Positions 2,684-64,000 of a stretch of DNA of 64,000 bases are shown piece after piece; position 1 is the stretch's first letter; the number at the start of each line of letters is the position of its first letter. Origin of the DNA: Microthyrium microscopicum (taxonomy: Eukaryota). The notes below the pieces were generated by a model. The model saw nothing but the letters and a program-made list of their open reading frames with translations. It did no database searches and was not told the DNA's origin. A program made the position numbers and the translations under genes. The stretch is from the NCBI GenBank assembly GCA_010405405.1, contig MU004246.1, positions 62,001-126,000 of the forward strand, given 5' to 3'.

Positions 2684-3157
2684 ATGTGTGTCCATAGATA
2701 CTACCCCTTCTACTGTGGCTGCCTCGTCTTCCAGATAATGTCAAAATGTTCCGTCGGCCTAAACCTCGATAAGATCACTGGAGCACTTGACTGCCCAAAT
2801 AAACGACTTCAAGAAGGAAGCATGTCCCACCAGCGCCAGGCACGAGACACGTTCTGGAAACAGTTGGATAGAGAGGGAGACGCTGACGGATTCATGGTTC
2901 TACTACAATCTTTCCGTTGCCAGCTAGCTGAGCATGAAGACTTGTCAAATTATCAGAACGGGAAGTATAGATGGATGCTTCCTGTCAAGCAAAAGCTTAG
3001 AGTCTGGGCTCATGAGGCTGGTATTGATCGACTGCCTTATGGATATTTTCCTGATGAGGGAAGACTTGCTCATAATGTCCCGTTGGATCCGGAAGATGAG
3101 GATGATTATGATGAGTTCAGCTTCGGACCTCCAGGAGGCGAAGTGTTCAATTACTAA
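2684..3157 (+). CDS. MC-x8-CGC family protein, copy 1 (157 aa, acidic tail)
   Basis: MCVHRYYPFYCGC...CPNKRLQEG...CQLAEH...YGYFPDEGR; aligns by eye to copies 2-6. Confidence 0.8.
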   Translation: MCVHRYYPFYCGCLVFQIMSKCSVGLNLDKITGALDCPNKRLQEGSMSHQRQARDTFWKQLDREGDADGFMVLLQSFRCQLAEHEDLSNYQNGKYRWMLPVKQKLRVWAHEAGIDRLPYGYFPDEGRLAHNVPLDPEDEDDYDEFSFGPPGGEVFNY

Positions 3158-3478
3158 CGCAATGCGATATGTATCAGTTCACAAGCTGGGATCTAGCAGC
3201 TGAAGCAAACGTCAACTGTGTGGATCTGATGAAGAGCAGAGTGTAACTCACTTTATTTACAGGCGTCACGTCGACAGTTTGAGATAGATCGCCAGTTTCG
3301 AAGTTAAACAACAGCATCACTATTTGAGTTCAGACATAAAATTCATGATCTTGCTCCCTTCAAAGCTTGCCTGTTCTATTATCCCTCCCTTACTTTCATT
3401 AGTGCCTAAAACCGTCTACACATACTGCACGACTCAAATCGACACTCAGCTATCAACACAGTCCACCTCATCACCATC

Positions 3479-3874
3479 ATGTGCCGCCTCGAATACTGGC
3501 CCATTATATGCGGCTGCATGTTCTGGCGAGTCGAAAGCAAATGTGAAGAGGCAAGAGACTCCAACTGGGGCGCTCTCAAGTGTCCTTACCGACAGATCAT
3601 AGAGGGTCATTTTGGGGATGATTCCTGGTTCTTTGCAAATGACAATGACACCTTAATTCAACATGTTGTCCTCGTAAAGCCTCTGCGCTGTCAAGATCCT
3701 GTGCACGAGAAGGAACTTCGCGCGTCTGATGAAATGCATCCTGGTCATGCAAAGTTCAGAGATGCATTGCGGGATATTATGCACAAGGAGACTGCTCTTT
3801 GGAGTATTAGTTATGGATATAATCAGGACACTGGGAGGGTGGAAAGTGTGGCAGGATGTGATATAAGGCGGTGA
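3479..3874 (+). CDS. MC-x8-CGC family protein, copy 2 (131 aa)
   Basis: MCRLEYWPIICGC...CPYRQIIEG...CQDPVH...YGYNQDTGRVE. Confidence 0.8.
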   Translation: MCRLEYWPIICGCMFWRVESKCEEARDSNWGALKCPYRQIIEGHFGDDSWFFANDNDTLIQHVVLVKPLRCQDPVHEKELRASDEMHPGHAKFRDALRDIMHKETALWSISYGYNQDTGRVESVAGCDIRR

Positions 3875-4436
3875 AGTCAAACGTGTAACTGTTTACCTGA
3901 AATTTGATGGAATGTGGAGCTACTACAAAAGCGCTGCGAATGAGATATACCCAATGAGTTGGAGTTACTCTCATGAGATAACAATACAACACCTTTTTCA
4001 GTGCTGTTGTATCTAAGGTTGTTGTGCATTATACTTTGGCCTATAAAGCGTTGCTAGGCTGTCATTTATTGACCTTATCCGCAAACCTTATTTCCAAAAT
4101 TATATCGTAGAAAAGACTGCCAACCTTCAAAGAACAGATCATATTTGAACATACTCCGGGATACGAGAGTATTAGGAAAGGGGGTTGTGAAACTGCTGCA
4201 AAGAGACAGATGAATGGGACAGGTGGTATAAGTAACTTCTCAACGAATTTTACTTGCGAGCATCACTATTATTGTCATCATTACCTATTGGCTATTATGC
4301 TGAGATCTATAAAAAGCTGATCTGCCACTACTTTTCCTCATGACCTTCCTCATAAAATTTTAAGCAGACATATTACAAATCTAAATAGAAAGTCCCCCGT
4401 TATCTTGGAACGTTATACATTCTAGAGCTAAACAAC

Positions 4437-4880
4437 ATGTGTTGTCACGAATACTTGCCATTTGTATGTGGCTGCCTTATTTTGATCCGCGCGGGAAAGA
4501 CCTGTCCAGCAGGTCAGGCGTTAACGGGAGAATGTTTGATCCTCGCTTGTCTAAATTGTCCCAACAGGCAAATTCAGGAAGGAGATTGGGTCCAAGGTTC
4601 TAAAATCTGGGGTTACATCATGAGAGCGGAAAATCGATACCAAACCGTTGGCAGTGATTTTGGGTTTATCTTCCTAAGGTCGAAACAATGTCAGAATCAA
4701 ACGCATGGGCAATGGGCAGCACAGTATGCGCAGAGACCGATCATACGAGCTCAATGGCCCCAGGTCCGAGAATTGGTTATCGACATTGTCAAAAACCAAA
4801 CAGAAATTGGCCAAGGAACTCGTGGATATAATCCACAAAATGGAAGAATGGAGGATTTGAATATTCCTCGAGATTACTAG
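4437..4880 (+). CDS. MC-x8-CGC family protein, copy 3 (147 aa)
   Basis: MCCHEYLPFVCGC...CPNRQIQEG...CQNQTH...GTRGYNPQNGRMEDLNIPRDY; TATAAAAA at 4308. Confidence 0.85.
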   Translation: MCCHEYLPFVCGCLILIRAGKTCPAGQALTGECLILACLNCPNRQIQEGDWVQGSKIWGYIMRAENRYQTVGSDFGFIFLRSKQCQNQTHGQWAAQYAQRPIIRAQWPQVRELVIDIVKNQTEIGQGTRGYNPQNGRMEDLNIPRDY

Positions 4881-5790
4881 GTTGGGACCGAAGAGACTGC
4901 TATTGATCACTGGATTTGCTGAATTCGGTAGCTTTGTAATACATATACTTTTGCAAATCACTCTTCTTGTCGCTATCATCATCTTTACTCTTAGGAGGAA
5001 GCATATAAAAGCGGTGCTTTGCTGCTGCCTTCTATTACGATCGTCTTCACTCCTTTCTATAATCAGCATACTACAGCCCATATCGCCATATCTGACACAG
5101 GTGAAATAGAGAATATTAGGGGGATTGCATTGCCATCAGCTTTTGTAGCTTGGCCTGGAAAGCAACAAAGGAAACGAAATACTGAATATTGAGTTTGAAA
5201 GCACACTGTATCCGTCTCCAATATAGTAATGTGTTAGCAGTCATATTAGTTTACTCTTGGCTGTGTATTTTATCATACGAGAAGTCTTGAGCTTTCATTT
5301 CTCATTCCGTGAGTCTTTAGAGCCTTTTACGTTTCATTAACTGCCAAATCGTTTAAAACAAATCACAACTCTAGCTCAATTGTTGCGCAAGGCACTTATG
5401 GGCACAGCACAGTAATGAAACGAGCGAAAACTATAGGATTTCTACATGTTAGGAACTGAAGGTAACTAGTGCGAAGACACTGCAGCATGAGAGAAAATTT
5501 GTGTAATGAGGAATTGTTTACAAGTCCAGTCACTACTATTTGGTATATCCAGAAGAGTAATCTCTGCTTATAACCATCCACAGAGTTAAGCCTGTCATGA
5601 AGAGAAGTATAAAAAGGTCTGCTTTGTCGCTTTGCCACCGCGCTCCATTGACCATTCAGTCCGAACTTATTCTTCAACGAATATACTATAAAAAGGCGCA
5701 AGTCCCAGATTACTACATACAAATCCTTCCGATACACAAGTCAACAACCTTTAGTCTCAGAAAGAGACGACTTCAATCTCGACAGCAACA

Positions 5791-6240
5791 ATGTGTATAA
5801 TAGAATGCGCCCCTTTCGTGTGTGGATGTATGCTAGTAACCATTGTTAGGCGTTGTCAAACGGCCTTAGGAATCGACGGGGAATGTTCCATTGAGACCTG
5901 TCTTGAATGCCCAAACAGACAATTTCAAGAAGGGAGCTGGGCCCCTAGATCTAGAGTTTGGAGGGCTTTGGTGACAACGCAGCGAAAACTTTTCACAACA
6001 ATAGGTCACTCCCCTGTGTTTGTTATCTTGACGGCAAAGCACTGCCAGAACCCGCAGCACGCACAATGGGCTAGAGAATATGCAGCAAGACCAGGCTTTG
6101 GGACTAAGCCAAACTATTGGGCGCAGATTCGCGATATGGTGCTTCAAATTGTTCGAACAACGGAGATTGGACGTGGGACCAGAGGATATAATCCACAGAC
6201 AAGACAGGTAGAGGATTGGGGAATTCCTAGAGAGTACTAA
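5791..6240 (+). CDS. MC-x8-CGC family protein, copy 4 (149 aa)
   Basis: MCIIECAPFVCGC...CPNRQFQEG...CQNPQH...GTRGYNPQTRQVEDWGIPREY; TATAAAAA at 5608. Confidence 0.85.
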   Translation: MCIIECAPFVCGCMLVTIVRRCQTALGIDGECSIETCLECPNRQFQEGSWAPRSRVWRALVTTQRKLFTTIGHSPVFVILTAKHCQNPQHAQWAREYAARPGFGTKPNYWAQIRDMVLQIVRTTEIGRGTRGYNPQTRQVEDWGIPREY

Positions 6241-6600
6241 GAGGTAACTGGTAGTACAGTATGTGTATATAGCTGGTGCAGAGAAATACGGCAGAGACAA
6301 GATATCTACAGAGAATAACTTTTGAATCTGACAATGACTATACTCAGACTCAGACTCTGGGACTCTGCTCAGACTTTACTTAGTAAGATGATCTTTTAGT
6401 AACCTTACTACCTACTTACCTAGGTACTTTAGTCAAACTTGTACTATCAGCAAGCATATAAAGCAACACTGCCTTCTGTTGCAACTGTCTTCTTCCTTAC
6501 ACTCAAACAACAGCAAAACCAACCACAAATTAAAAACAACTCATAGGTACAATTTCATCACAAAAAATCCCCAAACACATTAAGCCCAGAAATAAGCAAC

Positions 6601-7047
6601 ATGTGTATCCTTCATTACCACCCGATGGTATGTGGATGCCTCCTGATAACACTTCGCGACCGATGTCAAGCATCTCTGGCGCTGTCAGGCCCATGCACAA
6701 TCGAAACGTATCTTGATTGTCCAAACAGGCAATTCCAAGAGGGCGGATGGAGATCTGATCGAGATCTGCACCAGACTTTTCGCCGCATGCAAATGATGGG
6801 CGATACGATCGGTTCCAGCCCATACTTTGTATACTTGCACTGCAAGAACTGCCAATTTCCACAACATGCGGAATGGGCGAGAGAATATGCAATGAGAAAG
6901 AGAAAAGAAGATGGATCAAGTTATTGGGACCAAGTTAAAGAAAGGATTGTTGAGATTGTTCGGACGACGGATGCTAGAAGTGGAACTAGAGGATGGAATG
7001 GGCAGACTGGACGGTTGGACGATTGGGGAATTGCTAGAGAGTACTAG
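6601..7047 (+). CDS. MC-x8-CGC family protein, copy 5 (148 aa)
   Basis: MCILHYHPMVCGC...CPNRQFQEG...CQFPQH...GTRGWNGQTGRLDDWGIAREY; TATAAA at 6457. Confidence 0.85.
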   Translation: MCILHYHPMVCGCLLITLRDRCQASLALSGPCTIETYLDCPNRQFQEGGWRSDRDLHQTFRRMQMMGDTIGSSPYFVYLHCKNCQFPQHAEWAREYAMRKRKEDGSSYWDQVKERIVEIVRTTDARSGTRGWNGQTGRLDDWGIAREY

Positions 7048-7347
7048 GCAATATTATGTAACTGCCGTACGGAGACTGCAGGATAGGATAGTCTCTATCT
7101 TCTCTATCACGTCTGCTAATACTTAATCACTTCACTTATTAGGACTATAACGTTTCCTTTTCACTATTGGTACTGGTAAAACGTACATGATGAATCGTAT
7201 AAAAAGGCTGCTCTGGCGCTGGCTCCTATTACAGCCGTCATATTCCTTACATACAACTACCATACAGCAAAGTAAATCGCAAAACCCACAATATCCCGGA
7301 CGTATTCTTTCGATACAATCATCCAAACAACAATCTCCAAAAGCATT

Positions 7348-7806
7348 ATGTGCAAGCTTTGGTACCACGCCTTCGTATGCGGATGCGCTTTTGTAATATT
7401 GCAGGAGGATCGCTGCCCAAAGGCAAAAGCCATATCGGGGCCATGCACAATTGAGTCATATCTAGAATGCCCAGATGTGCAATTTGTCGAAGGCAGCTGG
7501 TATCCTCGTGATATATACGACAACCCCATATGGCATGCCATTTATGAGGCGAATTACATAGATCGCCAGACCATTGGCTTTAGCCCTTACTTTATTGTCT
7601 TAAAGTCAAAGAGTTGCCAATTCCCAGATCATCTACGAATGGCTAGAGAATACTCGATGAAACTAGGTTCTAAGACTGGCTACTGGGAGCAGCTTCGACA
7701 GATGTCGATCCAGATTGTTCAGAGATCTGGCCTTGGAAATGGAACACGTGGATATAATCCGCAAACTGGTGAAGTGGAGGATCACGGAATCAGTAGGGAG
7801 TATTGA
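7348..7806 (+). CDS. MC-x8-CGC family protein, copy 6 (152 aa)
   Basis: MCKLWYHAFVCGC...CPDVQFVEG...CQFPDH...GTRGYNPQTGEVEDHGISREY; TATAAAAA at 7198. Confidence 0.85.
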   Translation: MCKLWYHAFVCGCAFVILQEDRCPKAKAISGPCTIESYLECPDVQFVEGSWYPRDIYDNPIWHAIYEANYIDRQTIGFSPYFIVLKSKSCQFPDHLRMAREYSMKLGSKTGYWEQLRQMSIQIVQRSGLGNGTRGYNPQTGEVEDHGISREY

Positions 7807-8143
7807 GAGGTAAAATATGTGTGTGGATGGTCACTGCGGAGCGTTTACCGCAAAGATGAGGTTATCGTCCCTTGATCACTACTAAAGCTCGTAGTAATTC
7901 TACTTAAGAATCAGATTGCGTGTTATCATAACTTCAATAGGTCAAAACCTAGAATCGTCATAATGAAGCGTATGAAAGAGTTGCTCTGACGTTCGTTTCA
8001 TTACGAAGCTCGTTATCCCTAACATATATCATAGATATTTTACTTAGCATCAGGCACCTGTTCACGATAAAACCATAAGTCCTTAAATTCTACTATAATT
8101 ACTACTATTAAAAAGAACTACCAAAACCTCCCAACCAAAAAGC

Positions 8144-8421
8144 AAAAACTCATGATACAGCCCCTACCCTCGCTGGGTAGAAGGTGTATCATGAGGAAAA
8201 GCCCGGTGGCTTTTATCTCGATCGTTCGGGGGATTGGGGGGGCGAATTAGGGACTGTAGTCCCCAAGTACTCCCCCCAGAATTGAACCGTCGCCTTGTAA
8301 GAGGCTGGAATTATCAATATGGTATTGTATCAGAGCCCATTTAGGGCTAGCTCCGTATCATCCAACAAGCACACAAATTTGATCCAAACGAGGGCCTCAC
8401 TCGCACGCTATTCTGTGTCTT
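8144..8421 (-). ncRNA. Putative Pol III-transcribed structured ncRNA, copy A (unknown class; ends inferred)
   Basis: TATATA ~25 nt upstream (8445-8452); 66-nt block (8361-8426) identical to 59598-59663; B box GGTTCAATTC (8279-8288); AAAAGCC/GGCTTTT hairpin; 21-bp 3' hairpin followed by TTTTT-GC-TTTTT. Confidence 0.65.
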
Positions 8422-11400
8422 GAAAATTGGGTTGGGATTTTGTGTATATATAGTAAATGTTGTGTTTTGGATGGAATTTCTTGAGGATAAAGATATGAGG
8501 TAAGTAAGGTTATGGGAATTGTTGGAAATAAGGTTATAGATAGTGGATTTTGGATTAATGACATTGTCGCTTATATGGAAAGTCTTTTCTATACTACTGA
8601 CTCTTGAGGTGCGACAAGAAGAATAGACGTCAAATAACTTAGTGTCATAAAGCGCCAGTTGCCGTGTACGCTTTTCAGAAAGCACACTGTCGCCACTGAA
8701 ATACAGACCAACGATGAGCAACTTGAAATGTTTGAAATAAACCATAGTATAAATAAACAAGTAAAAGATCGAAAGAACAAACTTCAACCAGAAGAAACAC
8801 GATGCGTCAAGAAGTGAGAACTCATTATAAAAAGAGAGCAAGTGTGTTAAAACTAGACTTATGCGAGCTACAGTACAATAGAGTATTCCTGGTCCTTTTC
8901 GAAGCATCCGGGGAAGTTTAACCACATGCCAGCCACGTGGTGCTAGACGCTCGTGTTTCAAGAGCCTTGTACTCATGGAGTTCTTATATACAGCGGGTCC
9001 GAGTAAGCAATCGGCCAGTGTTACTCTCCATACACAGGTAATTCAAGAACAAGTTGCGACAGCGCCATCAACCCGTAGCACCAGCAGGTATTAGTTGATA
9101 TCATATGTATGAAATATTCAGTTCTCTAAATATCTCAACCGTAGACTACAAAATGCTAGCCAACCACGTGGCAATGAATCCCTACTTTGTGGAGAAGCTA
9201 GAACAATAATTAAGCCACTCCTCGAGCCGAAACAAGTTCAGTCTGGCCATGGATCGAAGAAACGGTAAACAAGCATTATCTACCTTGCAGAAACAACAAA
9301 TCCGCTTAAGCACCAACCTTTCGCTTACCACTTTCTGCCTGTTTAAGTCTAATGGTAAACATCGATTGTGTCGTCATGAAATCAGAAGTTTATACAGCTG
9401 TGCATAGCTGGTTTATATCGTGCATGGTCCATGACAGGTTGGAATAGGAAGCTTAAATCAGCCCGCAGTTTTGGTTCGTTAGCATGCAAGTAAATTGGCG
9501 CCAATCGGGCCTTTGAGTTAGCTGCCATGGACATCACCAGTATTTTAACATGCAATTTCTTGTTGCCCATGGGCCTGCAACCGCATGACAAAATAACTGG
9601 CGTTCTCCCATCAACTTCGCTGGCTTCCCCGAAAACTTTCAATTAAGAGGTGTTATACTTTCCATCGCATTCGATAAACTATCCAAGTCTGGACGCCATA
9701 AATAATAAATTAAGTACTCAATACCAAAGCGTGTTGTGTAGGAGCTCTCGAAGTCGATGGGGGCACGCCATTTATTTTGTCCATTGGTTGGCCTGTTAGA
9801 CCAATTGGGCCCCTTGCTAGGTGACCTCATTGATGTGTCGAATGTCAATGGATTTGATTGGTGAAGAGGCTTGGATGATTAGGAGCAGCGGAGCATTGGG
9901 CCAATGAGAAACGACTTAGCTAATGTATGGTTCATAGTGGTGCGATCAACAGTGGTGATCGATCGAGTGTCACTGTTGCATTTGCTGGAGAAGTTTACAT
10001 CCGAGAGGGTTAAATTGTCGTGTAATTGAAGTCATTGGTTAAGGTAGATAGCGGAATGATATCGTGGCCGGAAAAGGTAATTACCACTGAAACTGTTGGA
10101 GGGCGTTGTCTGGGGTGGTTGCCGGTTTTGGATTGCCAAGTTTCCTTCCTTGCAGGTTTTGCGGTGTGGACAAGCCTGATATCATAGATAGTAGATTGGC
10201 GATTTTCAAGGTTTCAACAAGATACACGAGATATAATGTTTTTCTTGAAGGAATCATCATTTTTTGGCGAATTGATACTGTACAGCAACATCGAAAACAA
10301 ACACCAAAAATGAACAGTCGATAGATAGAGGTTGGGGAATTCCAAATTTAACTTTTGACCTTTCCGCAAACAGCTCCTGCTCCACGTGGTAGGCTGGCCT
10401 GCTATGCTTTGTTCCTTCCTTCCTTCCAAGTTGTCGCTAATCGCATGGGAAGGAGCCATTTTAGGGAACCACGAGTTGGCACTTGCAGCCTTTCCATTCT
10501 CCCCACCAGGCCCATTCACTCGCTTATACAATCCTCTACAAACTCTTTTACACGAGAAAGATATTTTCGGCGTACGGTACCTGAAGACGGTAGGGCTGTA
10601 GCAGATACGAGCCTGCAACCGTACCACTGCATGTAACCACTTGAGTCTGGGTAAGTTGTCTTTCTTTGTCTCTAGTCTGGGGCGCAGCACCTCCAATGCG
10701 GCCATCCGCCATCAATTGTGCATGTGAGCATCACCATCATATGCCTCAATATCAATATTTTACTCCACGACATGATTACTATCTCTTCACCCCCTGGCTA
10801 ATTGCTAGTTTCTTCTACAAGCTGCTGACAATCCGTGACCAGATATTGTACAATCTCCACCCTCGATTTAGATCGTAATTTGTACTTCTTGCCCAACTTC
10901 CAGATACTGTGCCCAGGTGGCTCCCAAACGCCACAAGTAACCCGCCACGGACAAACGTGGGCAAGAAGAGTGGAATTGCCTTTCAACCTCCAAAGTATAA
11001 ACTCCACCCAACAGTCTGATCTTCCGGAACAAATAGCCGATTGTTGTTGCTATTTGACGCCTGCCAGGTACGGAAATAGAGGCGTCATTTTTTAAAAACA
11101 GTTTATACCCTCAACTGTCCTCGGAGACTTCTTTGAATCCTTTCACCTGGATATCACCATCTCGATCCCTCCAATCTTTCCTACACTGGGAGAAAGCACT
11201 TGCACCAGACAAAACGTTTCTGACCCACGCAGAGGACCATTAAGCATCTCGTGCTTTCTTTGTTTCCAATAGTGTTTGTTCCATCAACTCAGTATTGTTC
11301 AATACTTGTTGTCCTCCCAATCACCATCGGCCTTGCAACTCCCAACTGCAGCCGCACACCCAGAAATACGGTTACCAAGGCCTGCAAGCGTCCGCGACGA

Positions 11401-25449: not shown

Positions 25450-26322
25450 ATGTATCTACCGAAAGTCCTATCGATATTAGCGCCTCTGGTGTCACTTGTT
25501 TCATGTACGGCCTTGACGTACAAACTCCAGGCTCATGAGAAGGCTTGCTTCTTTACGGATGTTCAGACTAAAGGCGCAAAGGTCGCTTTTTATTTCGCTG
25601 TATGTTTTCCTCGATAACTGCCCTTCCGATCATATCTACTTGGCTCTCCGGACCGATGCTTTCTTGGACAGACAGCTTCACTTCGCGGGCAGGCTTCACT
25701 TCGCGGGCAGGCTTCACTTCGCGGGCAGGCTTCACTTCGCTCAGCAAGCTAATCAAAGATACAAATAGGTTCAATCTGGCGGCTCCTTCGATGTCGACTA
25801 CAGCGTAATAGGACCTAACGAGCGTACCATCATGGAAGGCGCCAAAGAGCGACAAGGCGACTATGTGTTTACTGCCAATGACGTTGGCGAGTATCGCTTC
25901 TGCTTTAATAATGAGATGAGCACTTTTGCGGAGAAGATGGTTGATTTTGAAATCGCTGTATGTTCCCCAATTCCCCATTGCCCCATAACACCCGTTCTTC
26001 CCAAGTTCAATTTCTAACGACTTCGTCGTAGGTCGAAAACGAAGCCCGCGCCAAACTCCCCTCCAAACAAGGCTCCTCCTCCGAACAGACCAGCGTCCTC
26101 GAAGAATCCATCCTCAAACTCTCCTCCCAGCTCTCCACCGTCAGCCGTCAGCAGAAATACTTCCGGACGCGCGAGAATCGAAACTTTAGTACGGTGCGGA
26201 GTACGGAGAAGAGGATTTTCAACTTCAGTATTGCGGAGAGTGCGTTGATGGTTACGATGGCTGGGTTGCAAGTGTTTATTGTACGGTTCTTCTTTCAGGG
26301 CGCGAGGAAGGGGTATGTGTGA
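25450..26322 (+). CDS. p24/emp24/gp25L (GOLD) cargo receptor, gamma (Erp2/Erp3-like) type, 2 introns
   Basis: Signal peptide MYLPKVLSILAPLVSLVSC; HEKACFF...VAFYFA|VQSGGSFDVDY; GEYRFCFNNEMS; QKYFRTRENRNFSTVRSTE; TM followed by FFQGARKGYV*. Confidence 0.92.
25675..25740 (+). repeat. 18-bp minisatellite (GCTTCACTTCGCGGGCAG x3.7) inside p24 intron 1
   Basis: Three perfect units plus a 12-nt partial unit, read directly. Confidence 0.95.
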
Positions 26323-31053: not shown

Positions 31054-33299
31054 TTCCTAAGGCTGACCGGGAGGTATGACAAGATATGCGGGGTGTCGTA
31101 GTGATCAAAGCGGGAAGAAAAGCGTAGCAGGATGGTAGGAGAGGAGTTGTAATAAGGGAGAAAAGGGAGGATATCAAGAGCAAACGGACAGGAAAAGGGC
31201 AGTGAAAAGGCAGATATCAGAAGTGTGAGAAGATTGTGGAGATCGTCAAGATTTGACTGTCAACAGATTTGGCAGTTACGGGAGAGCGAGCGGGCAGGCA
31301 CGAGGGAAGCCGTCCCACTAGCTACTAAACTAGCGCTCCTTCCACCACTAACAAAAGAAGGAAAGAGCCTTCCAGCCACCCACGTCATCGGTCTTTCCCC
31401 ATGTCAAAATGCTTCGGCCTTGCCTTTTTAGGCCATTGTATGCATGGACCTCCTTGACATGTCTACAATTGGGCACCTGGCCATTGCCCAACCAACCGCC
31501 TACACGCAACACATATAAACTCGTCGTCGTTGGGTCAACCTTACTGTACCTTGGGCTGCATTAATTGCCGCTTGACCGGACATTATACTTTGTTCTTATA
31601 GGCCAAGCAAAGTCAAATATCGCCTGGGCATCCACTATGCCAACCACCATACCGTACATCTACATTCAACCTCATGTAGCCTGATGAACCTCGGTTTCGA
31701 GACGACCTTTTTAAATATTGTCGAGTAGACATGATTCGGTACTTTGAGGAATGCCATGTTTTGATATTCAGTACAAGAGCAAGGAGTTGATCTCAAGAGT
31801 AACGGTTTCTCAGAACATCAAGATGATCCAACGTTCTGTTTCTTAGACGAAGGCGAAAAGCGTCAACTTCCAATATTATGCAAAGCGCACTTCCGGGGTG
31901 TAAGATGTAGCTCTCACATTCAATGATTGCGTCGCTGCAATGACTTCAGCCGGCAACATCAACGAGTCACTGGACGTTTCTTGCATCGTTAAGAGACAAC
32001 GCAAAAAGCAGACCATTCCAAGCGAATTTGGTGAGTAATAAGATCATTGTATCGAACGGAGCTCTATATTGCAAGTCTCCATGTTGTTCAATTCTGCTCT
32101 GACTTCTTGTAATCTCGTCTCTCATGAAATTTCTCTCCATCTTGGACTTTGCTGGGTCATCACGACCATCTTATTCACGCACTACAAAGCTTGCCAGATT
32201 ATAGATCTTTTTCTATCACCTTACCTTATATGACTTCCTACTTACACTATCATGGACTCTATGTAGCAATCCTGCTCACCAAGTCTTCCATGAAGAAGCT
32301 CTACCCATCATGGACTGATGATGAGGTTGATCGACAACGTAAGCTGCTCAAGGGACATGAAGAAGAAGTTCGCATCAAAGGCTGGCAAGAAGCTCTGGGC
32401 CAGATTGTCCGCCTCATATCTGAGGATTCTATATTCCAACGATTTCTGATCAAGCACCCGAATACAAAGCTCAAGCTACTTAATGTATCACTCTTTCTTC
32501 TCCTTTGGGCCATCCGCAGTCCAGTCGCAAGATCTATACGCGGTACTCAGAAACCGAAAACGGCACTCTTCTACTAAGACGCTGATTTTATGAACATTGC
32601 TGCGCTTGATCTGACGACGGACGACGTACAGCCAACTCAAAAAGCTCAATGAACTGGTCCTACAATGGACCGTAAACCAATCCCCTCAATCAAACGAAAC
32701 GCTATCCCAGAACGCAATCCCTTCTTCATATCAGTACCATTAATCACTTCTTGATACTTTCGACTCGTATATCGAACGACAGAAAGCTCACCCTGAACGA
32801 AGTGCGGTTGAAGATCCAGAGTTGATATTGCCAATTATAGACCTCCAAGAGTTCTTCTGGTACCCGAGCGTCAACCATGCCATCAGCAAGATCTTTCTCA
32901 ACATTATGACTAACTCCTTGATAAATGCTTCCACCTTGTGCTAGGCGCATGTTCCTTCCTTGGTTTGAGATGATCGATCTCAGGTGCATGAGCGCCAGCT
33001 ACTTTCACCTTCACTGAGCGAGCTCTTGAGGTAATCGCTATTACCTTAGGAAATTTGACTAGACCGCCTATACCCATTCAGTGAAACTGCGAGTTCGGCA
33101 GAACACGTGAGCGCCTGAATGTTTATCATTGTCCTCGCAATCTACACGATTTGTTAGTTGTTCTTGTACTTCTCCTCGCCTCACCATCAATCCGCACCAC
33201 CACTCAACACAAATCTCACAATTCTGCGCCTGATTGATCTTCTTTTCATTTTCATCACGCCAATACGTTCACTATCCGCATCTGTTTCTTCAGTACAAG

Positions 33300-34406
33300 A
33301 TGGCTCAATCCGATAACGCTCCAGAGCTTTCCAGCGCACAATTGTCCTCGCCTATCATGAACCTACCTACGGAGATCATGCTCGAACTCGCCGCTCAGCT
33401 ACATAATTTGGAAGACCTTCACTATCTTTCCAGCACTAACAAGCACATTCGGGATCAGCTTTCGCTGGTGACGCCAAATACAATCCTTGGGCTTACTCTC
33501 CGAAGTAACAGCCAATGCTTTAAGCTGGGACAGAACCACCAGAAATTTGCGTACGAGCCTTTGCCTGTCATCGCTTTGGTGGTGGATCAGCTGATAGGTT
33601 GGGCCGCTCGAAGCAATAAACATATGGAGACTCTTTCGTCTGCTTTGGCCACAGGCTTTGGCTCGGTTGCATTATCTACGACTGGCACCATTTATCAAGA
33701 CTTCACTCAAAACCTCAAATCCAGCGGCACCGTGCTCGACTTGTGCTTAAAGCACTGCGGTCTCACAATGTCTACCATTCGCAACTTGATTCCACATCAT
33801 GCTACCGCGGGTGTCTTCTTCCACGAATTAGAACTCATGGGTGAGCTACAAGATGGATTGACAAGCAACCGACCTACGCAAAACCACGCTGCTGCTCTCA
33901 TCTACTACCAGGTGATTTACGGAGCGCTATTTTTGCCTAATCTGACAGCCGTCTTGGATCCGCATGCACCAGAGTCTCCAGGACTGGGACTAGAGTCACG
34001 ATTAAAATTCATGACTATCTGCGTTAATTCGGACGCCGATATACAAACATTACAAGCTACTATCCTGTGGCATCGCGTGATGCAAGGTCGGGGCTCACTA
34101 CAAAGCCGCAACAACTGGCGAGAAGTCATGTTTGACAATCTACACATATTCCGGGGACTAGAGACATTCGGGATCATGTCCAACAATAGTCCAGAGCAAA
34201 CAGAAGACCGTATGGCAGAGTATCGAACTCAAATAGATGTACTGGCGGAGCCTGCTCATATCAGTTATGAAGTCTCAGAATCGATTGTTCTTTCTCTTCC
34301 GATGTGGCCAGAAATCGAAATGGATGCGCATGCTGCGAAGCATATTCGTATCGAAGCTGAGTTGCACATGACACGCCAGGCTAGCCGCTCACTGGACCAA
34401 CAGTGA
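33300..34406 (+). CDS. F-box-like family protein, copy 1 (intact, 368 aa)
   Basis: N-terminal SPIMNLPTEIMLELAAQL..LEDLHYLSSTNKHIR resembles the F-box consensus; family motif LDLCLKHCGL. Confidence 0.8.
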   Translation: MAQSDNAPELSSAQLSSPIMNLPTEIMLELAAQLHNLEDLHYLSSTNKHIRDQLSLVTPNTILGLTLRSNSQCFKLGQNHQKFAYEPLPVIALVVDQLIGWAARSNKHMETLSSALATGFGSVALSTTGTIYQDFTQNLKSSGTVLDLCLKHCGLTMSTIRNLIPHHATAGVFFHELELMGELQDGLTSNRPTQNHAAALIYYQVIYGALFLPNLTAVLDPHAPESPGLGLESRLKFMTICVNSDADIQTLQATILWHRVMQGRGSLQSRNNWREVMFDNLHIFRGLETFGIMSNNSPEQTEDRMAEYRTQIDVLAEPAHISYEVSESIVLSLPMWPEIEMDAHAAKHIRIEAELHMTRQASRSLDQQ

Positions 34407-35085
34407 AGCACTGCTGGGAAGTGGGAAAGTACAGCGACATGAAGAAGAGAGGGGCGAGAAAGATGCCATAGAGAATAGAGAGGGAGGGAGCAGACAGGGC
34501 GATAGCGTGGAGTTGGGTCCAGAATCTAGCCTACAAACCAAATTTCGAACCAGTCACTGCAGTCTTCCTGAACGAATCACGGATTTTCTAAAAAGAAGAT
34601 GACGGTAAAGGATTTTTATAAGTCTTCAGAAGCTGAGAACCGAGAGAATCAACTTGTAGACCTATTATTCGCTCTTTACGCCTATTTCTACTCCGTGCTC
34701 CCCTTGCTATCATACTATCCGACTTCAATTTATACTACACTATTGCCGCTTTCCTACTTACTAAAGCGTAAAAAGCTTTATCTTGTTAACTTTTCTTGGT
34801 CTACTTCGTCTACTTAGGGGGTGGGTTTCAGGTGGTTCGTTTGAGGTAGTCCAACTAATCTGCCAGGCTTCCACCTCCAGACATCAACGGTCAGTGCGTC
34901 CTCCAGAACCTGTAGTTGAAATGCTTGTGGAAGGTGGCTAGATCACCGATCAGTGAAAGCAGCCAGTCTGGCAGAACGACTTAGCATCCGATTCGCTGTT
35001 CGTTCGACTTATTGACAACTTGCTCTTGCCTCGACCTGGCATGTCTCAATCCAGAATATCTGAATCCACAACGTCTCAAACCGAC

Positions 35086-36558
35086 ATGCCTGAATCGAGC
35101 AACCTCCCAGTGGCTCATATCGCCCCAATTTCCTCCTCCATCCTGGTCTTGCCCAACTGAGCTGATGCTGGAAATTGCCTGTCAGCTCTATAACCTGGAA
35201 GATCTATATCATTTTTCACGTATAAATAAACGTATCCATGATTAGCTCTCACAAGTACTGCCCAACACGATTCTCGATCTTACTATTAGAAGCACTAGCA
35301 AGTGCTTTACCTTAGGACGTTTCTATCGCGACTTAGACCGCGTCAACAAAGAAAATGCTAAGAGATACGAGGATCCGATGTATCAAACCATAATCTACGA
35401 ACCTTTATTCGTCATCGCTCTAGTAGCGGATCAATTGACGAACTAGGCCACTCGCAGCGCTGAGAACATGAATGTTCTTGCATCTGCACCAGCAACTGGT
35501 TCGGCGCTGTTGCATTGGGTATTGATTTGACGGTATTCACTGCTAAAGGCCACCGTTATGATTATGAACTCCCAGGCAGCGTTCTTGATCTATGCTTAAA
35601 GCATTGCGGCCTCACAATGGCTGATATACGCAACCGTTTTGCTCACAATGCCAGTAAGGGAACCTTCTTCGAGGGTATAGAAGCGATGGGTCAGACATTG
35701 TGCCAGCTGGCGTAACCAAACAAAGCCGCCACTATCTATTATATTCACGCCATCTGGGGTTCTTTCTTTGCGCCTAGTCTACAGGCGGTCTTAGATCCAC
35801 AAACAGCAGCAAAGCCAGTCCTCGGACTAGCCTCACGGCTCGCTTTCATAGAACACTGCGTCCACACAGAAGACACCATTCAGTGACTAAGAAATCCCTT
35901 CAAATGGCTCCAGGATTGAGATGGGCAACATCCGCAAGTCGCTATTGAAATCGTCATGCAAAGCCCGCTGACAAAGTCCGACATGTTGGCAATGATGTTT
36001 CCATTCCAAGGCCTAGAGGGACTACACCCAACTACGAAATGTGATTGCCAGCGACCCTCTCCCCCTCATAGTCTTTTCTGGATTTATCCAACGGTGTTAG
36101 CCAATCATGTAGATAGGACGTTCGTGAATGTTGGGACAAATAGTGCTAGCCTCTTTCTGGTCCCAGAATTACTTTGAAGCACGCTTTATTACGCTATTGA
36201 TTGGTTAATATCTGTAGAAAACATGTGTAAAGGGGGGAGGGTAGCTGGCAATCACATTTCGTAGTTCAGTGTAGGCAGAGTACCCGCTGGCTGCTCCAAG
36301 CAAACAACAGTTGACATGGCGAAGATACGACATTAAATCGACGCCTTAACTAAGCTGCCGCGGAACATATCTGTGAGAATCTCGGAGCATCTGAATAACT
36401 ATCTTTTTCCAGGATTCCCTGCAATTATACAGGACGCCCGGGCTGTTCAGTTAATGCGCTCGGAAGCGGGTGGAGTGAAGATGGAAGCAGCACGCGCGGA
36501 AGCAATACGTCTAGACATTCTTCGGGGACACAAGGAGTGGAGACTAGGAGAGCAATGA
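35086..36558 (+). pseudogene. F-box-like family copy 2, pseudogene with MITE insertion
   Basis: Frameshift in LP(T)E; stops at 35243 (TAG where paralogs have CAG) and 35444 (TAG for TGG); retains LDLCLKHCGL; interrupted at 36025-36271. Confidence 0.85.
36025..36271. mobile_element. 247-bp MITE with ~40-bp TIRs and TA target-site duplication (Tc1/mariner-type)
   Basis: Left end TA|CACCCAACTACGAAATGTGATTGCCAGCGACCCTC; right end (reverse complement) TA|CACTGAACTACGAAATGTGATTGCCAGCTACCCTC. Confidence 0.88.
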
Positions 36559-37561
36559 ATTGACTGGTTTGTATTACGCAAACATGAGAATTGGATATGA
36601 TACAAAAGCAAAAGCTTCTGCTAGAATACCATGCACTTCGATCTTCCTGAGCCAAAATTCAAATCAATGGGCAATTCGACCCGTAATGTAGCACTCAAAA
36701 CACACATTTGTAGCCCGTCACTGCGCTTTTCTTCCACAAACACGAAAGTAAATGAAAAGAAGACGATGCTAAGGATTCTTGGAAAGCCTTCGGAAGCTGA
36801 GATTCGAGAGAAATGACCTCCGGTCCTGTTGTTGGCTCTCTGTACCTACCTACCTATCCATACTACTTCAGACTCCTATCATTGATCGGCCATTGAAAGT
36901 CCGCCTATGCTTCGCTGTTACCGTCATTCTACTTCTATGAAAGGTTCAAATAGCCTCAACGAATTCCTCCTACGCCTCAGTGTTAATGACTATATATTTT
37001 TCTATTCACATTTCCTAATTGAGGCCAAACGATACAAATTGGGGCAATATATTACTGTTCTTCCGTAGCCGAACAACAGAGCGATCGTTCTATCTGACCC
37101 GTATATCGCTTTTGGCACTACGGTCAGTTCGGGTAAGCCGCATCTGTCCCTTCCGCCCGGTATTGGATTTGAGGCGGTTCATTCGAGGTGGTCGAGCTCA
37201 TCTGCCACCTCTACATAAGGCCGGGCATCGCACCCTCCATAACAGGCAGTTGAACGCCTTGCGGAAGGTAGCTAGATTGCCTAGACTTGCAATAGTGAAA
37301 CTGGCAAGTCTAGTAGAACACGTGAGCGCTCCAACTCGTTTTCTATAAAATCTTGAGAGACCTCGACTTGTTCTCCTGCTTTTTTTCCTCGCTTCACCAC
37401 CAACCCGCACCACCACTCTGGATTGCTCACAGCCATAATCGTTGTTCCGCAGTTTACCGCTTTCAGCCATACTCTATATTCCAGCCCGTGCAAACCAAAC
37501 CGCTTTCTTCTTCCCCCCTCGCATTCCGTGCACCAACTTCACCTCTTCAACGCTATACAGC

Positions 37562-38749
37562 ATGGCCGAGTCGATCGACCTTCCTGCGCCTCCCACGACG
37601 CTGCCTCATACCAAAACACCAGCATCCATAACCGGTTTGCCAACAGAGCTTTTGCTCATTATTGCGAGCCAGCTTTACAACATCGAGGATCTTCACTATT
37701 TGTCGTCTACCTGCAAGCGTCTCCAGGCGCAGCTGTCTCATGTATTACCAAACACTATCCTTGGTCTTACACTTCGAAGCAATAGCCAATGCTTCAGAAT
37801 CGGCGAATTACGAAATGGCCATACTCACTTTTGCAAGCCATTGCCAATAATCGCCCTCGTCGTAGATCAACTAGTTACCTGGGCCAGCCAGAATACTGCC
37901 AACATGCAAGCTCTTGCATCTGCTCTTGCTACAGGGCTTGAATACTCTACCATCTCCTCAACCGAGCAGCTTCGGAAAGAAGGTGGTGAAAATTTGCTCG
38001 ATTTATGCCTAAAGCATTGCGGTCTCAAGATGTCTGATGTTCGCCAGCTTATTCCTCATAATGCCCCCTACGATGGCCCTTTCTTCGAGTGCATTGACAT
38101 TGAGGACTGGGAAGAAGAGAAGCACTTCGATTTCAATTGGAGGGCAATGTCACGAGCCGCGAGCGTCTACTACAACATCATCTACACGAAACTGTTCACG
38201 CGGAACCTGGAGGCCATCCTGGATCCAGATGCACCAGCCCGTCCAATGCTTGGCCCTGATTCACGACTGAACTTCATGCAATACTGCTTCGAGAATGAAG
38301 TGCGAGAACTCGACTTCAGGAACGCCATACGTAAGATTCGGAAGCAGCTACCAACGGATTTCAAATATGCGACTTTTTCGCTTTTTCCTGATGGAGATTG
38401 GAAGCGAAACATCATGTGGTCTGTGACTTCAGTCGTGGGACTAGAGAAACTGAGGTTACCGTCTATCGCTGGCCTTGACTCGACAGAAAATCGATTGATG
38501 CGCTATCAAGAACAACTGTGCGCCTTAACCGACGAACCACGTCAGCTTCTCTGTCCCACCCCTGTGTGGTCCGGGGCTGTTCTAGTTACAGCTTGGCCGT
38601 CTATTGAGGACGATCGGTGGGTTGTTGACAGAGTCCAATGGGCGCTACACGAACCACCCTACCCAGGGATGTATTCCACAGTTCACTACACCTGTCGGGG
38701 CAGCATCATAGAGGCCTCTGTCAAGTCGCGGAAAACAAACTTCGATTAA
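37562..38749 (+). CDS. F-box-like family protein, copy 3 (intact, 395 aa)
   Basis: ITGLPTELLLIIASQL.NIEDLHYLSSTCKRL; PNTILGLTLRS; LDLCLKHCGL. Confidence 0.82.
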   Translation: MAESIDLPAPPTTLPHTKTPASITGLPTELLLIIASQLYNIEDLHYLSSTCKRLQAQLSHVLPNTILGLTLRSNSQCFRIGELRNGHTHFCKPLPIIALVVDQLVTWASQNTANMQALASALATGLEYSTISSTEQLRKEGGENLLDLCLKHCGLKMSDVRQLIPHNAPYDGPFFECIDIEDWEEEKHFDFNWRAMSRAASVYYNIIYTKLFTRNLEAILDPDAPARPMLGPDSRLNFMQYCFENEVRELDFRNAIRKIRKQLPTDFKYATFSLFPDGDWKRNIMWSVTSVVGLEKLRLPSIAGLDSTENRLMRYQEQLCALTDEPRQLLCPTPVWSGAVLVTAWPSIEDDRWVVDRVQWALHEPPYPGMYSTVHYTCRGSIIEASVKSRKTNFD

Positions 38750-40053
38750 TAAAAGACAAGGAGGAAAGCTAAATCGGCGAAGCTGAGAAGAATAAGGCCA
38801 GGGACAGAGGGAACGGTTTGGATGATGAAATTGAAAATGAGCGGACTGCCGAGAGGAATGGATTCAGGGACGGCAAAAGATTAGCACGCGAAGCAAAGCG
38901 CAGTCCTTAGTCTAAGTAAAGCTCGATGGTGTGCTAGAGAGGATGATCGTCTCACACTGCAAATGTAATGTACAGAAGCAGCGGTTATTGACAGGACTCT
39001 GAGCAACAGAGTGGCCGAGGACTGTTGTGGGTTATTCAAAAAGTCGGTTATTTTTCCGTTGTGTACTTAGGTAGGTAGATTTGAATCATAGCATTGTCTA
39101 TATGAACGATACGCCATCATTTAGCTTGTATCTTTGCATAGCGTTAACTTCTTGAGTTGTGAACGAGTATTTAATCACTTGCTTCCTCCCCGTTGTTAGT
39201 CATAGAGTAACATGTGTTAGCCATTCAGGTGAATATTTCATGTGTTTTTTAATCACAGAGTTCAGCTTATAAGAAGACGTAAACTTTAGTCCATGTTTAT
39301 GACAATTTACATTGGCATTGGTATATCAACTCAAAGATACCAATCTGAAGTTATTATCTGCAGCTCCCGTTCTCGTCCAAGAGACCGCCCGAAATTGTAG
39401 CCTGATGATCGCAATCCTTTGTCCATTTGGCTCGCGAGATGGCTACTGGTCAATCGTTCTTGTTCTATAAATCAAGTGAAAAACACCACAGCTCTCTTGG
39501 GCAGTAAAATTTGAGATTCAAATCCATCAAGATTGGCATCTTTGATATTCCTTGATGTTCTTTCTATCGAACGTCCAATACAAGAACCTTCATACTATGA
39601 CTAGAATCGAACATTTGCATCCTTCATATTTGCTCTTTCCATCGGATGGAAGTTTTCAGGTGGTGTATTTTAGGCGATTAAGCTCATTTGCTGGTTTCTA
39701 CCTCCAGACAAACAACAGTTATCGCTCTCTCTATAACAGGAATTCGAAGGCCTTGCAGAAGGTGACAGGTACCTAGTTCACCTGCTTTTCAGAACAGCGA
39801 TAGCAGCAAGTCTAGCAGAAGGCATAAGACCCGTTGTTCTCAAAGTCTTGAGGATCTTCGACTAGTTCTATATTTCCTCGCTTCACCGCCAATCTCCACA
39901 ATTAAGCATCAATCTTGCCGCTTTATATCCTCCCTCTTCAATTCTGCTTCGAGAGCCACATACCCGCGCTCTAGGAAAGCAGTTATTGTTACTCCGACTG
40001 TTCGTTCCCTACGCCATGTTCGACCGAAGTCATCTTTGAAGTTTCGACGCAGA

Positions 40054-41300: not shown

Positions 41301-41716
41301 ATGGAGGCATCACGGAAGAGAAGAGTGCAAACTGATACAAGTGTTCCGAGCCAGAACCCACTGGAGACTGTGATGAACAGTAGAGTACATTCCAATTGAT
41401 AGGTAGCAAAGGTATGCCCGTTATTCCGTCAAACGTCTCATGCAAGAACCCGGATACTATGACCAGAATGGCAGTAACAGACGACTTAATCGCACCTTCC
41501 TGACCAGCACGAGTATATCGTGCTTTCCCAAAAAGTACTGATGTTGGCAAGAACGCTCTTACCTTCCGTGAGATTCTCAGCGTAGCAACAGGTCGTACAC
41601 CTGCTAAGACTGCTGCCTGGATCTCCAACTTCAACACTTTACCTTCAGTACTCACTTTCGCTTCATCCTACTCGTTTCAAATCACCGTCCCCAAATAATC
41701 TCCGTTTACCCCAAAG

Positions 41717-59087: not shown

Positions 59088-59602
59088 GGTTATCTAGATG
59101 GCTTTGAGCATAATGGGTTGGAGTATGAATTGAGAGCAATATCATAGGATTGGTCTGTTTGATTGTAGTGATGTAATCTTTGGGCATTCACTTTTGCTTC
59201 AGTTGATCAGAGTCACTTCTGTGCTTCCAGAGACATGTCGTCAAGCAAGGTGCTGGCACTGGAAGAGTGATTCACTATCACTGTCTTGAAAGAAAAAAAT
59301 TGATAGATCTCTCGGGTTATATCTCACAACTTGCACTGAGTGAAGCTTACAAGTGTCGCCAAAGTACTCTATTCTAGTTCCCTACAGAATCAGCAAAAAC
59401 ACAGCCTTATAGCTCGCGAACAATTCACGAAACAGAAAATCCAACTAGCAATAAAGCACAAGCTGTCCATAATGTACTCTCCTCAAAATACTTTTATTGC
59501 TCTTCCTACCTAAGCTCAGTGACCACGGGGTGTGGAAGCGCGAGAAATTCTGCTCAAAGCACAACCTTCACCATATATACTCAAAACCCGGAATCATTTT
59601 TC

Positions 59603-59861
59603 AAGACACAGAATAGCGTGCGAGTGAGGCCCTCGTTTGGATCAAATTTGTGTGCTTGTTGGAATACGAGGCTAGCCCGATCGAGCTCTCACGATGAGCG
59701 TAATAAACAACAATACCGGTCGACACCGACGAAATCGACGACGCCGAGTTCAATTCCCGTACTAACCATAGATCGGTCGACCGAAATAAAAGCTGTCCGG
59801 GGCTTTTCCTTGTGATACACCTCCTATCCCATCGGGGCTAGGAGTTGTATCATAAGTTTTT
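59603..59861 (+). ncRNA. Putative Pol III-transcribed structured ncRNA, copy B (unknown class; ends inferred)
   Basis: TATATA 59574-59579; identical 66-nt 5' block; B box GTTCAATTC 59748-59756; AAAAGC/GCTTTT hairpin; 22-bp 3' hairpin with compensatory changes versus copy A; TTTTT-GC-TTTTT. Confidence 0.65.
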
Positions 59862-60067
59862 GCTTTTTGGTGGTGGTGTTTTGAATGATTTTTTGCTGTG
59901 GGTTGAGTAATCTAAGGCCTAGCTTCAGTGAAATAGACATGAGTAATAACACTATACAAAAACTGATATGTACGATTTGTCTTTATTGATTCTATGTAAC
60001 TATTGAAGCCGACATATCTTCATGTCGTAGTATTATGTTCTTCAGTCACTTTCCTGTCTGTTGATAG

Positions 60068-63790: not shown

Positions 63791-64000
63791 TACCTACCAG
63801 CTGGCACCAGTACTGGGACTATCTACTACATCAACCTCCTTTCATCATAGATACAGCCTCAACAAGCGCTATTTAGATACTCCACGTGTTCTAAGCCAAG
63901 CTTGCTATTACTGCGGTAATACGTTTCGACTCTCTTCCAGCAACAGATGGTCTCAAATACAAACACAAAATGATGTTCTCTCTGGACCTGCCAGCCAGCC

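Follow-up and report, generated by a model that had tools for sequence, protein, structure and literature searches.

The window, by which we mean the whole 64-kb stretch of Microthyrium microscopicum DNA that was analysed (64,000 nucleotides), carries two copies of one unit, here called A and B, each about 270 bases long, which from their letters resemble templates from which RNA polymerase III (Pol III) would make a small non-coding RNA. The anatomy established here for the two copies is as follows.

8137-8481, minus strand: copy A, whole unit
8427..8481, minus strand: copy A upstream promoter region, aligning with 59543-59597 (42/60, z 7.2)
about 8458-8469, minus strand: copy A upstream motif CCAAAACACAAC
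8445-8452, minus strand: copy A TATA-containing TATATATA
8361..8426, minus strand: copy A invariant 5' block (66/66 against copy B), holding the A-box-like TAGCGTGCGAGTGAGG
A8421 of CAAGAC, minus strand: copy A putative start
8223..8360, minus strand: copy A diverged middle, its alignment to the middle of B barely above shuffles
core 8279-8287, minus strand: copy A B-box-like GGTTCAATTCT
8235-8278, minus strand: imperfect hairpin with 21-nt arms in the middle of copy A
8149..8216, minus strand: copy A 3' module (fold z -5.56; 70/90 columns identical to B)
8197-8214, minus strand: copy A hairpin AAAAGCC/GGCUUUU
8175-8195 and 8149-8169, minus strand: arms of the copy A terminal hairpin
8137..8148, minus strand: copy A T5GCT5, read as a Pol III terminator
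59543-59868, plus strand: copy B, whole unit
59543..59597, plus strand: copy B upstream promoter region with motif CTCAAAGCACAAC
59574-59579, plus strand: copy B TATATA
59598..59663, plus strand: copy B invariant 5' block (66/66 against copy A)
A59603, plus strand: copy B putative start
59664..59785, plus strand: copy B diverged middle (fold z 0.06) with B-box-like AGTTCAATTCC, core 59748-59756
59786..59856, plus strand: copy B 3' module (fold z -5.88)
59788-59807, plus strand: copy B first 3' hairpin
59809-59830 and 59835-59856, plus strand: arms of the copy B terminal hairpin
59857..59868, plus strand: copy B T5GCT5, read as a Pol III terminator

Comparison of A with B established a very uneven pattern of conservation. 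The identity over 66 nt reported in a preliminary description of this DNA holds exactly, 8361-8426 on the minus strand and 59598-59663 on the plus strand agreeing at 66/66 bases, and a 35-nt core of this block occurs exactly twice in the window, with 0 occurrences expected from 100 shuffles. Similarity extends about 55 nt 5' of the block (42/60 identical, z 7.2) and is found again in the 3' module (70/90 identical, z 12.8, with three 1-nt indels). The middles, of 138 nt in A and 122 nt in B, align near-randomly (z 2.4, with 5/300 shuffles equally good), as do the 60 nt beyond the unit on each side (z 1.0 and 1.6). Homology is limited to the promoter and the putative transcript, and the 66/66 identity, set against 70% upstream and a near-random middle, bears out the strong constraint proposed for the 5' block.

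Two copies is the correct count for the window, where nhmmer profiles of both conserved modules found A and B only, but not for the genome. In three public DNA runs of the organism, all from one sample that is possibly the source of the window's assembly, the block has about 9.5-18.6 times the single-copy depth (at 8368, 999 against 105, 18724 against 1007 and 3959 against 332). This depth implies roughly 10-19 family members in the genome, a rough number because the depths sum all sequence at least 85% alike. For the block, one substitution is listed among the genomic copies. Two other members lie on contigs of 4,148 nt and 20,644 nt that are at single-copy depth and hence have unique flanks, and the contig of a close paralogue shows 7 substitutions and 9 gap positions over 8193-8302, so that its middle is alignable. 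The public runs found number 5, each of them DNA or of guessed type. In a further one, X5, whose type ("RNA?") is a guess, 17 of 30 bins are covered, with the middle of copy A (8220-8390) at depth 3.7, and another member is present in a 2,326-nt contig at depth 460; neither observation is counted as expression.

The alternation of constant and variable parts had been likened to guide RNAs, that is, to a modular family in which the invariant 5' block would be a scaffold and the variable middle a copy-specific target. Besides the constant-variable-constant layout itself, the kept lengths of the middles (138 and 122 nt) speak for this, as does, weakly, a member with a different 164-nt interior in run X5 (side 25 letters, likeness 85). 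However, the middles are no more alike than the outside flanks (z 2.4 against 1.0-1.6), as drift predicts, and close paralogues keep similar middles. The middle of B has no structure beyond chance, no target was found in the window, and Pfam recognised no TnpB/Fanzor-like or other nuclease gene among the 26 ORFs. We consider a guide-like family very unlikely; with the middle diverged as far as the outside flanks, scaffold and variable guide need not be invoked, and diverged middles together with alignable paralogue middles fit neutral drift between old subfamilies.

The Pol III-like layout reported earlier was recovered in both copies, with TATA box, B-box-like site and terminal T-run all found. 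TATATAC ends 23 nt 5' of the first A of CAAGAC in A and B alike, giving the TATA about 30 nt upstream at fixed spacing that is generic for Pol III genes, and the distance from TATA to block is equal in the two. At least two further genomic copies match from 8452 and 8454 down, i.e., from the TATA box on, and one of these also retains a similar motif upstream, with 1 nt inserted or deleted between it and the TATA box. Both middles, though unalignable elsewhere, carry an identical 9-mer, GTTCAATTC, in sense orientation, at 8279-8287 (minus) and 59748-59756 (plus), about +135 and +146. Against the B-box consensus, GGTTCGANTCC, GGTTCAATTCT in A and AGTTCAATTCC in B each agree at 9/11 positions. 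The less strict pattern GTTCRANTC is matched 4 times in the window, where 4.9 matches would be expected, and only the sense-strand placement in both middles is therefore notable. With TRGCNNAGTGG as the A-box consensus, TAGCGTGCGAGTGAGG fits only if two extra bases are allowed, and another genomic copy has a different reading of the five bases just 5' of GCGTG, beside this A-box-like site (its loose end is at 8408). At the other end of the unit, A and B each finish on a run of at least five T and have none inside, the longest internal run being T4, and the 3' boundary is sharp, with the homology of the examined genomic copies stopping at the T-run (8134-8137) directly after the hairpin module.

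In place of a Pol III gene one might propose an snRNA-like gene of the Sm class, transcribed by Pol II, or an exon that codes for protein, an alternative that we hold to be highly improbable. Within the block, AAAUUUGUG lies between predicted stems and resembles an Sm site; it is base-paired in the minimum-energy and consensus folds, though the fold itself is no better than shuffles, and a hairpin followed by a T-run is how Pol III genes end. The case for an exon comes from a frame that in A and B alike stays open from the upstream region through the block, with six consecutive A/B differences synonymous and 10/18 differences on codon position 3. Against this, a word search with the peptide came up empty among proteins of 62-200 aa, and 0 relatives turned up at E<=0.001 in a set of 1.84 billion representatives; copy A's 209-aa ORF found no relative, and frames across the unit had no Pfam match. 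The frame is moreover broken in a third copy by the 1-nt indel between upstream motif and TATA, and three 1-nt indels fall in the 3' module. The third-position bias itself (10/18 differences upstream of the block) is not predicted by promoter conservation.

Folding gave a divided answer to the earlier suggestion of a structured RNA, which stands for the 3' module (z -5.56 in A and -5.88 in B, with 0/200 shuffles as stable in each case) and falls for the 5' block, whose supposed self-fold does not surpass those of shuffles (z -0.59; 52/200 shuffles fold equally well). Of the separate stems ascribed to the middles, those of A are modest (z -2.55) and those of B do not exceed chance (z 0.06), so clear structure is confined to the 3' module. 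There both copies have the AAAAGC/GCTTTT hairpin and, after it, the terminal hairpin, with arms of 21/22 nt that are 86% complementary in each copy, a loop of 4-5 nt and T5GCT5 immediately behind. The covariation claimed for the terminal stem proved thin: of the 20 pairs predicted, 16 are the same in the two copies, 3 have a change in one partner and 1 in both, a count from the two sequences A and B.

A terminal hairpin of these dimensions with a T-run right behind it could also be a natural shRNA for Dicer, the conserved 21-22-bp stem and U-run being the product of a Pol III-driven milRNA or siRNA precursor and the rest of the transcript its carrier. The differences listed among genomic copies do fall mostly in the terminal loop and loop-proximal stem, with U-G changed to C-G at 8181 in most, and Neurospora milRNAs are Pol III-dependent (PMC3547838). 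The Neurospora crassa loci described there resemble the present units as fungal Pol III transcripts (putative here) with a long hairpin, but differ in that the most conserved part here is not the hairpin. A small-RNA precursor leaves the top conservation of the 5' block unexplained, and we found 0 matches or complements of at least 14 nt to either RNA elsewhere in the window, a weak point given that the window is only 64 kb. We regard this reading as quite unlikely.

Searches for known RNAs established the lack of a recognised family. Rfam 15, with its families for tRNA, 5S, U1-U6, U3, SRP, RNase P/MRP, Y and vault RNAs and ribozymes, gave 0 matches at gathering score over the whole 64-kb window, in agreement with the preliminary description; the genes alone gave 3 and 0 matches at E<=10, none above 14 bits where gathering scores are 34-91, and all of unrelated kinds, and wider stretches around them gave only box C/D-like chance matches outside the genes. 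ARAGORN found 0 tRNA genes in the window, and neither tRNA nor 5S, snRNA, SRP, RNase P or MRP was matched in Rfam up to E<=10, again as had been stated. A likeness of parts of the block to U3, U6 or U2 has no Rfam support at E<=10 and was set aside. A spliceosomal intron as the middle was also rejected: B has UACUAAC and then AUAG, a branch point and YAG 3' site corresponding to these are lacking in A, and, judged by eye, a good donor after the block is absent in both copies. A metagenome scan with a 20-nt core returned 4 loci, none similar around the match, and a pattern of 25 specified bases returned 0 and 0 from the genome_contigs and viral_contigs collections, which are nearly fungus-free and so uninformative on distribution. 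No description of such a family was found in open-access full text. Small Cys-rich ORFs adjoin both copies; their orientation differs and that of B is distantly related (E 0.001), and a link with neighbouring genes was rejected on these two points.

Roughly 10-19 copies, with unique flanks in the two members on the 4,148-nt and 20,644-nt contigs, might also suggest a non-autonomous mobile element (SINE-like, MITE or Helitron-like), as transposition machinery would need conserved ends and leave the interior free to vary, and the unit does combine conserved ends, a variable interior and a 3' hairpin. In copy B, two 11-nt stretches repeat each other directly with 1 mismatch (10/11), one of them just 5' of the start and the other 26 nt inside the T-rich sequence downstream, a result equalled by 4/200 shuffles, and copy A is surrounded by an inverted repeat (18 nt, 78%; 8122-8139 and 8427-8444). 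In addition, PMC5063351 describes low-copy SINEs of 140-493 bp from Aspergillus fumigatus, AfuSINE2 and AfuSINE3, with Pol III promoter boxes, heads related to tRNA or 5S, and target-site duplications of 4-14 bp. The present units share with these their low copy number, size and promoter boxes, whereas they differ in lacking such a head (ARAGORN; Rfam E<=10), in duplications that are missing from A and doubtful in B, and in having upstream sequence common to the copies. The last point weighs against retroposition, since a Pol III transcript that is retroposed cannot bring along the flank upstream of it, whereas about 55 nt there are common to A and B, and other copies match from the TATA on. 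The best direct repeat around copy A (7/8) is at chance, matched by 157/200 shuffles, in a duplication test that covers 2 of about 10-19 copies, and the inverted repeat of A was not found in B. Neither copy has an A-rich or simple-repeat tail, both ending in T5GCT5 and then G/T-rich sequence, and 66/66 identity beside a random-like middle is unlike the legacy of recent transposition. In Helitrons the ends are 5'-TC and 3'-CTRR and the hairpin is subterminal; here the 3' hairpin leads into the T-run, not CTRR, and none of the 26 ORFs scanned is transposase-like. Hallmarks of SINEs, MITEs and Helitrons are absent or weak, and the combination of hundreds of copies with target-site duplications and A-rich tails by which, according to the preliminary description, a SINE would be known was not seen. 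A mobile element is an unlikely alternative.

Among known systems, the dispersed 5S genes of Neurospora and the class III genes of fission yeast require an upstream TATA box and are likewise short dispersed multicopy genes, whose copies share no conserved sequence beyond the transcribed region, its T-run and a TATA some 30 nt upstream. Here, in contrast, there is no sequence or structural relation to 5S (Rfam E<=10), the unit is about 270 nt and not 120, and the interior is free to vary. The promoters of SCR1 and SNR6 (U6) in S. cerevisiae are similar hybrids of upstream TATA and A/B boxes with T-run termination, but the present units match neither SRP nor U6, number 10-19 and differ in their interiors. 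The rodent 4.5SH and 4.5SI RNAs are shorter than 100 nt. Their genes have boxes A and B with a TATA-like box at -31/-24 (PMC10137851) and resemble the A/B family as lineage-restricted multicopy Pol III genes (putatively so here), while deriving from 7SL RNA and tRNA, in contrast to the A/B family with no detectable parent RNA. Type 3 Pol III genes such as those for plant and hymenopteran telomerase RNA (PMC9841428) share the combination of upstream motif, TATA and T-run; telomerase RNA was nonetheless rejected as a candidate, because a multicopy family with varying interiors is unsuited to it, and the two CCCTAA hexamers of copy A are in predicted stems and absent from B.

On balance we think it probable that A and B belong to a family of small RNA genes transcribed by Pol III, dispersed in the genome and restricted to one lineage, with an organisation like that of the dispersed 5S genes of fungi or the 4.5S genes of rodents. 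As to the polymerase, transcript ends, bound proteins and function of this family, we infer a scheme in which TFIIIC would recognise the internal B box and the A-box-like site in the invariant block, and TFIIIB would occupy the TATA about 30 nt upstream, aided by the further upstream motif. Transcription would start at the A of CAAGAC and stop within T5GCT5, giving RNAs of about 259-285 nt that may be protected by their oligo-U tail, as a La or Lsm binding site, and by the very stable 3' hairpins. The working part would then be the 5' 60 nt, invariant in sequence though weakly structured, presumably bound by a protein or by a partner that pairs with it, and also part of the internal promoter, and the middle would be a largely unconstrained spacer bearing the B box.

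A more speculative and rather unlikely version sees here modular fungal Pol III RNAs whose 5' domain, single-stranded and invariant, brings in one effector, and in which either the fast-diverging centre or the conserved 22-bp terminal short hairpin sets target specificity. If true, this would be a natural system that is guide-like or feeds RNAi, with the build of rodent 4.5SH RNA but no relation to it.

To our knowledge, little of what Pol III transcribes in filamentous fungi has been mapped beyond tRNA, 5S, U6, SRP and RNase P. Should the family prove to be a mobile element or silent, it would merely be a note for repeat annotation. If the Pol III gene family is real, however, 10-19 members with an invariant 60-nt domain and no Rfam relative would constitute a new abundant class of RNA in one lineage of Pezizomycotina, the invariant block would be an obvious handle for pull-down, and the compact promoter and terminator could serve small-RNA expression in such fungi.

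Copy A (8137-8481, minus strand) and copy B (59543-59868, plus strand), two members of a putative small RNA gene family, carry corresponding parts in one and the same order, beginning with an upstream motif and closing with TTTTTGCTTTTT. They share an invariant 66-nt 5' segment, the block (8361-8426 minus; 59598-59663 plus), which is followed by a variable middle (8223-8360 minus; 59664-59785 plus) and by a 3' module of two hairpins.

Parts of the copy A unit (within 8000-8600), as read from the sequence
start of unit, minus: upstream motif and TATATATAC
23 nt past TATATATAC, minus: CAAGACACAG, which opens the 66-nt block
inside the middle, minus: GGTTCAATTC
after the middle, minus: hairpin AAAAGCC/GGCUUUU
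after the AAAAGCC/GGCUUUU hairpin, minus: hairpin with 21-nt arms
last part of the unit, minus: TTTTTGCTTTTT

The feature is real. A 35-nt core of the block occurs twice in the window and in none of 100 shuffles. No third copy within the 64 kb came up by repeat finding or by nhmmer with profiles of the two conserved modules. We compared the two copies segment by segment, with shuffled sequence as the reference.

Copy A against copy B (z against shuffles)
further 60 nt upstream: unalignable, z 1.0
60 nt upstream of the block: 42/60 identical, z 7.2
block: 66/66 identical, z 16.8
middle, 138 nt (A) and 122 nt (B): scarcely alignable, equalled by 5 of 300 shuffles, z 2.4
3' module through the end of the T-run: 70/90 identical, z 12.8
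following 60 nt downstream: unalignable, z 1.6

Because the outer flanks are unalignable, homology is confined to the predicted promoter and transcript. Sharing of upstream sequence excludes a retroposon in its simple form; a flanking direct repeat was seen at copy B (10/11, equalled in 4 of 200 shuffles), but none beyond chance at copy A (157 of 200). A MITE or Helitron is a weak alternative, a flanking inverted repeat being present in copy A only. Within the homologous region the block is much more conserved than the other parts, and by our own arithmetic 66 consecutive matches at the neighbours' 70-78% identity have a probability below 1e-7. The middle has diverged to the same degree as neutral flanks, and a guide-like variable domain is therefore not needed to account for it.

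Several features are consistent with transcription by Pol III, and the preliminary description, which had proposed a Pol III-type ncRNA gene, was largely right in kind. TATA box spacing is identical in A and B, and a B-box-like 9-mer is kept on the sense strand in both otherwise random-like middles. Since a looser B-box pattern is no commoner in the window than expected (4 occurrences, 4.9 expected), the weight of the argument lies in the sense-strand presence in both middles. The interior of the unit lacks any run of five T, and the putative terminator, T5GCT5, lies directly behind a strong hairpin; it is here that the homology of all copies stops. In gene organisation the putative Pol III units resemble the class III genes of fission yeast and the dispersed 5S genes of Neurospora, which are similarly arranged. 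The rodent 4.5SH and 4.5SI genes likewise share this organisation (PMC10137851).

No known RNA was recovered, as had been claimed from the sequence: Rfam 15 gave no match at gathering thresholds and ARAGORN no tRNA. At E<=10, wider stretches gave only box C/D-like chance matches outside the genes, the copy A gene alone gave three matches of at most 14 bits (gathering scores 34-91), and the copy B gene alone gave zero. Apparent likenesses to the U3 start, the U6 catalytic region and telomere-template hexamers, together with a supposed Sm site in the block, were unsupported by these searches and are treated as rejected leads. Directly past the copy B terminator, 59880-59960 (plus) scores weakly as a box C/D snoRNA (sn2429; 18.1 bits, gathering score 50, E 0.95), probably by chance.

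Both copies have a strongly structured 3' module (z -5.56 in A, -5.88 in B; 0 of 200 shuffles as stable). The covariation attributed to it is limited: between A and B, a single terminal-stem pair differs in both bases (C-G to U-A), three pairs differ in one base, and 16 stay the same. Most of the differences listed among genomic copies fall in the loop of the terminal hairpin and in the stem positions next to it, and position 8181 is C-G in most copies as against U-G in copy A. A folded 5' block had also been proposed; it can self-fold, but shuffles equal its stability (z -0.59). Since it is nonetheless invariant, the block is conserved as sequence and not as a stable fold, which suggests a surface for binding or pairing, or an internal promoter element. 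Of the variable middles, to which stems had been ascribed, A is modestly structured (z -2.55) and B is not (z 0.06). The product may be a natural short-hairpin RNA. No 14-nt match or complement to either RNA was found elsewhere in the window.

Two copies had been described, which is true of the 64-kb window only. Four public DNA runs from one sample, possibly the source of the assembly, contain the stretch, and three were used (X1, X3, X4). Counting everything at least 85% alike, depth at 8368, inside the block, was 999, 18724 and 3959 against single-copy depths of 105, 1007 and 332, giving ratios of 9.5, 18.6 and 11.9. The 3' hairpin bin stood at 9.6-17 times single copy and the middle bin (8218-8304) at 3.3-5.9 times. 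Two long contigs of single-copy depth (4,148 and 20,644 nt) each have a further member at an end, and these two members therefore occupy unique, dispersed sites. The match of every member ends at 8134-8137, within or directly past the T-run. The 5' ends of the matches form a graded series at 8408, 8426 (the case of copy B), 8452 and 8454; positions 8452 and 8454 fall at the TATA box edge. In the member that diverges at 8454, a sequence similar to the upstream motif persists, altered by a 1-nt indel. Listed block variants comprise a single substitution (8368, one contig per run), and one or two copies also carry a cluster of changes 5' of 8408. Variants below 10% of depth are unlisted, so single-copy variants may escape. 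The copy A middle has close paralogues, for example a 111-nt contig over 8193-8302 with 7 substitutions and 9 gap positions.

A protein-coding exon might be suspected, as upstream of the block 10 of the 18 differences between A and B occupy third positions of an open frame and six consecutive differences are synonymous. Several results speak against this reading: the frame is broken in a third copy, the block has zero synonymous changes, and relatives are lacking both for the peptide (a word search gave no candidates, and 1.84 billion representatives gave 0 matches) and for a 209-aa ORF in copy A. This three-base periodicity of the promoter differences (8427-8486 against 59538-59597; the same 10/18, in one phase) would not be expected from promoter conservation.

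Other features of the window
2684-7806, plus: six paralogous small Cys-rich ORFs in tandem, ~150 aa, starting MC.L.YH..CGC (tblastn E 6e-4 to 7e-43 against the 7348-7806 copy)
25675-25740: ~3.7 perfect head-to-tail repeats of the 18-nt unit GCTTCACTTCGCGGGCAG
33157-42937, plus: ~400-aa gene present as five paralogues in tandem (repeat families D1, D4, D6, D7)
36022-36064 / 36232-36274: 43-nt inverted repeat, 91% complementary, arms 167 nt apart
58749-59087, minus: distant seventh Cys-rich ORF (E 0.001), adjoining copy B
62001-64000: G+C 0.35, against 0.41-0.53 in the rest of the window

Copies A and B each lie within ~350-500 nt of a Cys-rich ORF, in differing orientation. These small ORFs have no Pfam family, and in Atlas match orphan Ascomycota clusters only (scores at most 0.87). 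The ~400-aa cluster, one paralogue of which has a weak F-box-like match (E 1.4e-4, under the Pfam cut-off), looks like a lineage-specific expansion; the inverted repeat within it may represent a small foldback or a MITE-like insert.

The fungus is a member of the Pezizomycotina without a close sequenced relative; the window encodes the fungal domains Mmc1, Rtt109 and UCH, and the best named Rtt109 matches are Dothideomycetes, 44% identical. Scans of sequence collections in which fungal genomes are few or absent yielded chance matches or no match at all, and searches of open-access literature, at the level of abstracts and listings, gave no description of such a family. The units are best described as a candidate family of Pol III-type small RNA genes that is unclassified, multicopy and lineage-restricted and whose design is a sequence-invariant 5' domain and a structured 3' module with a drifting interior.
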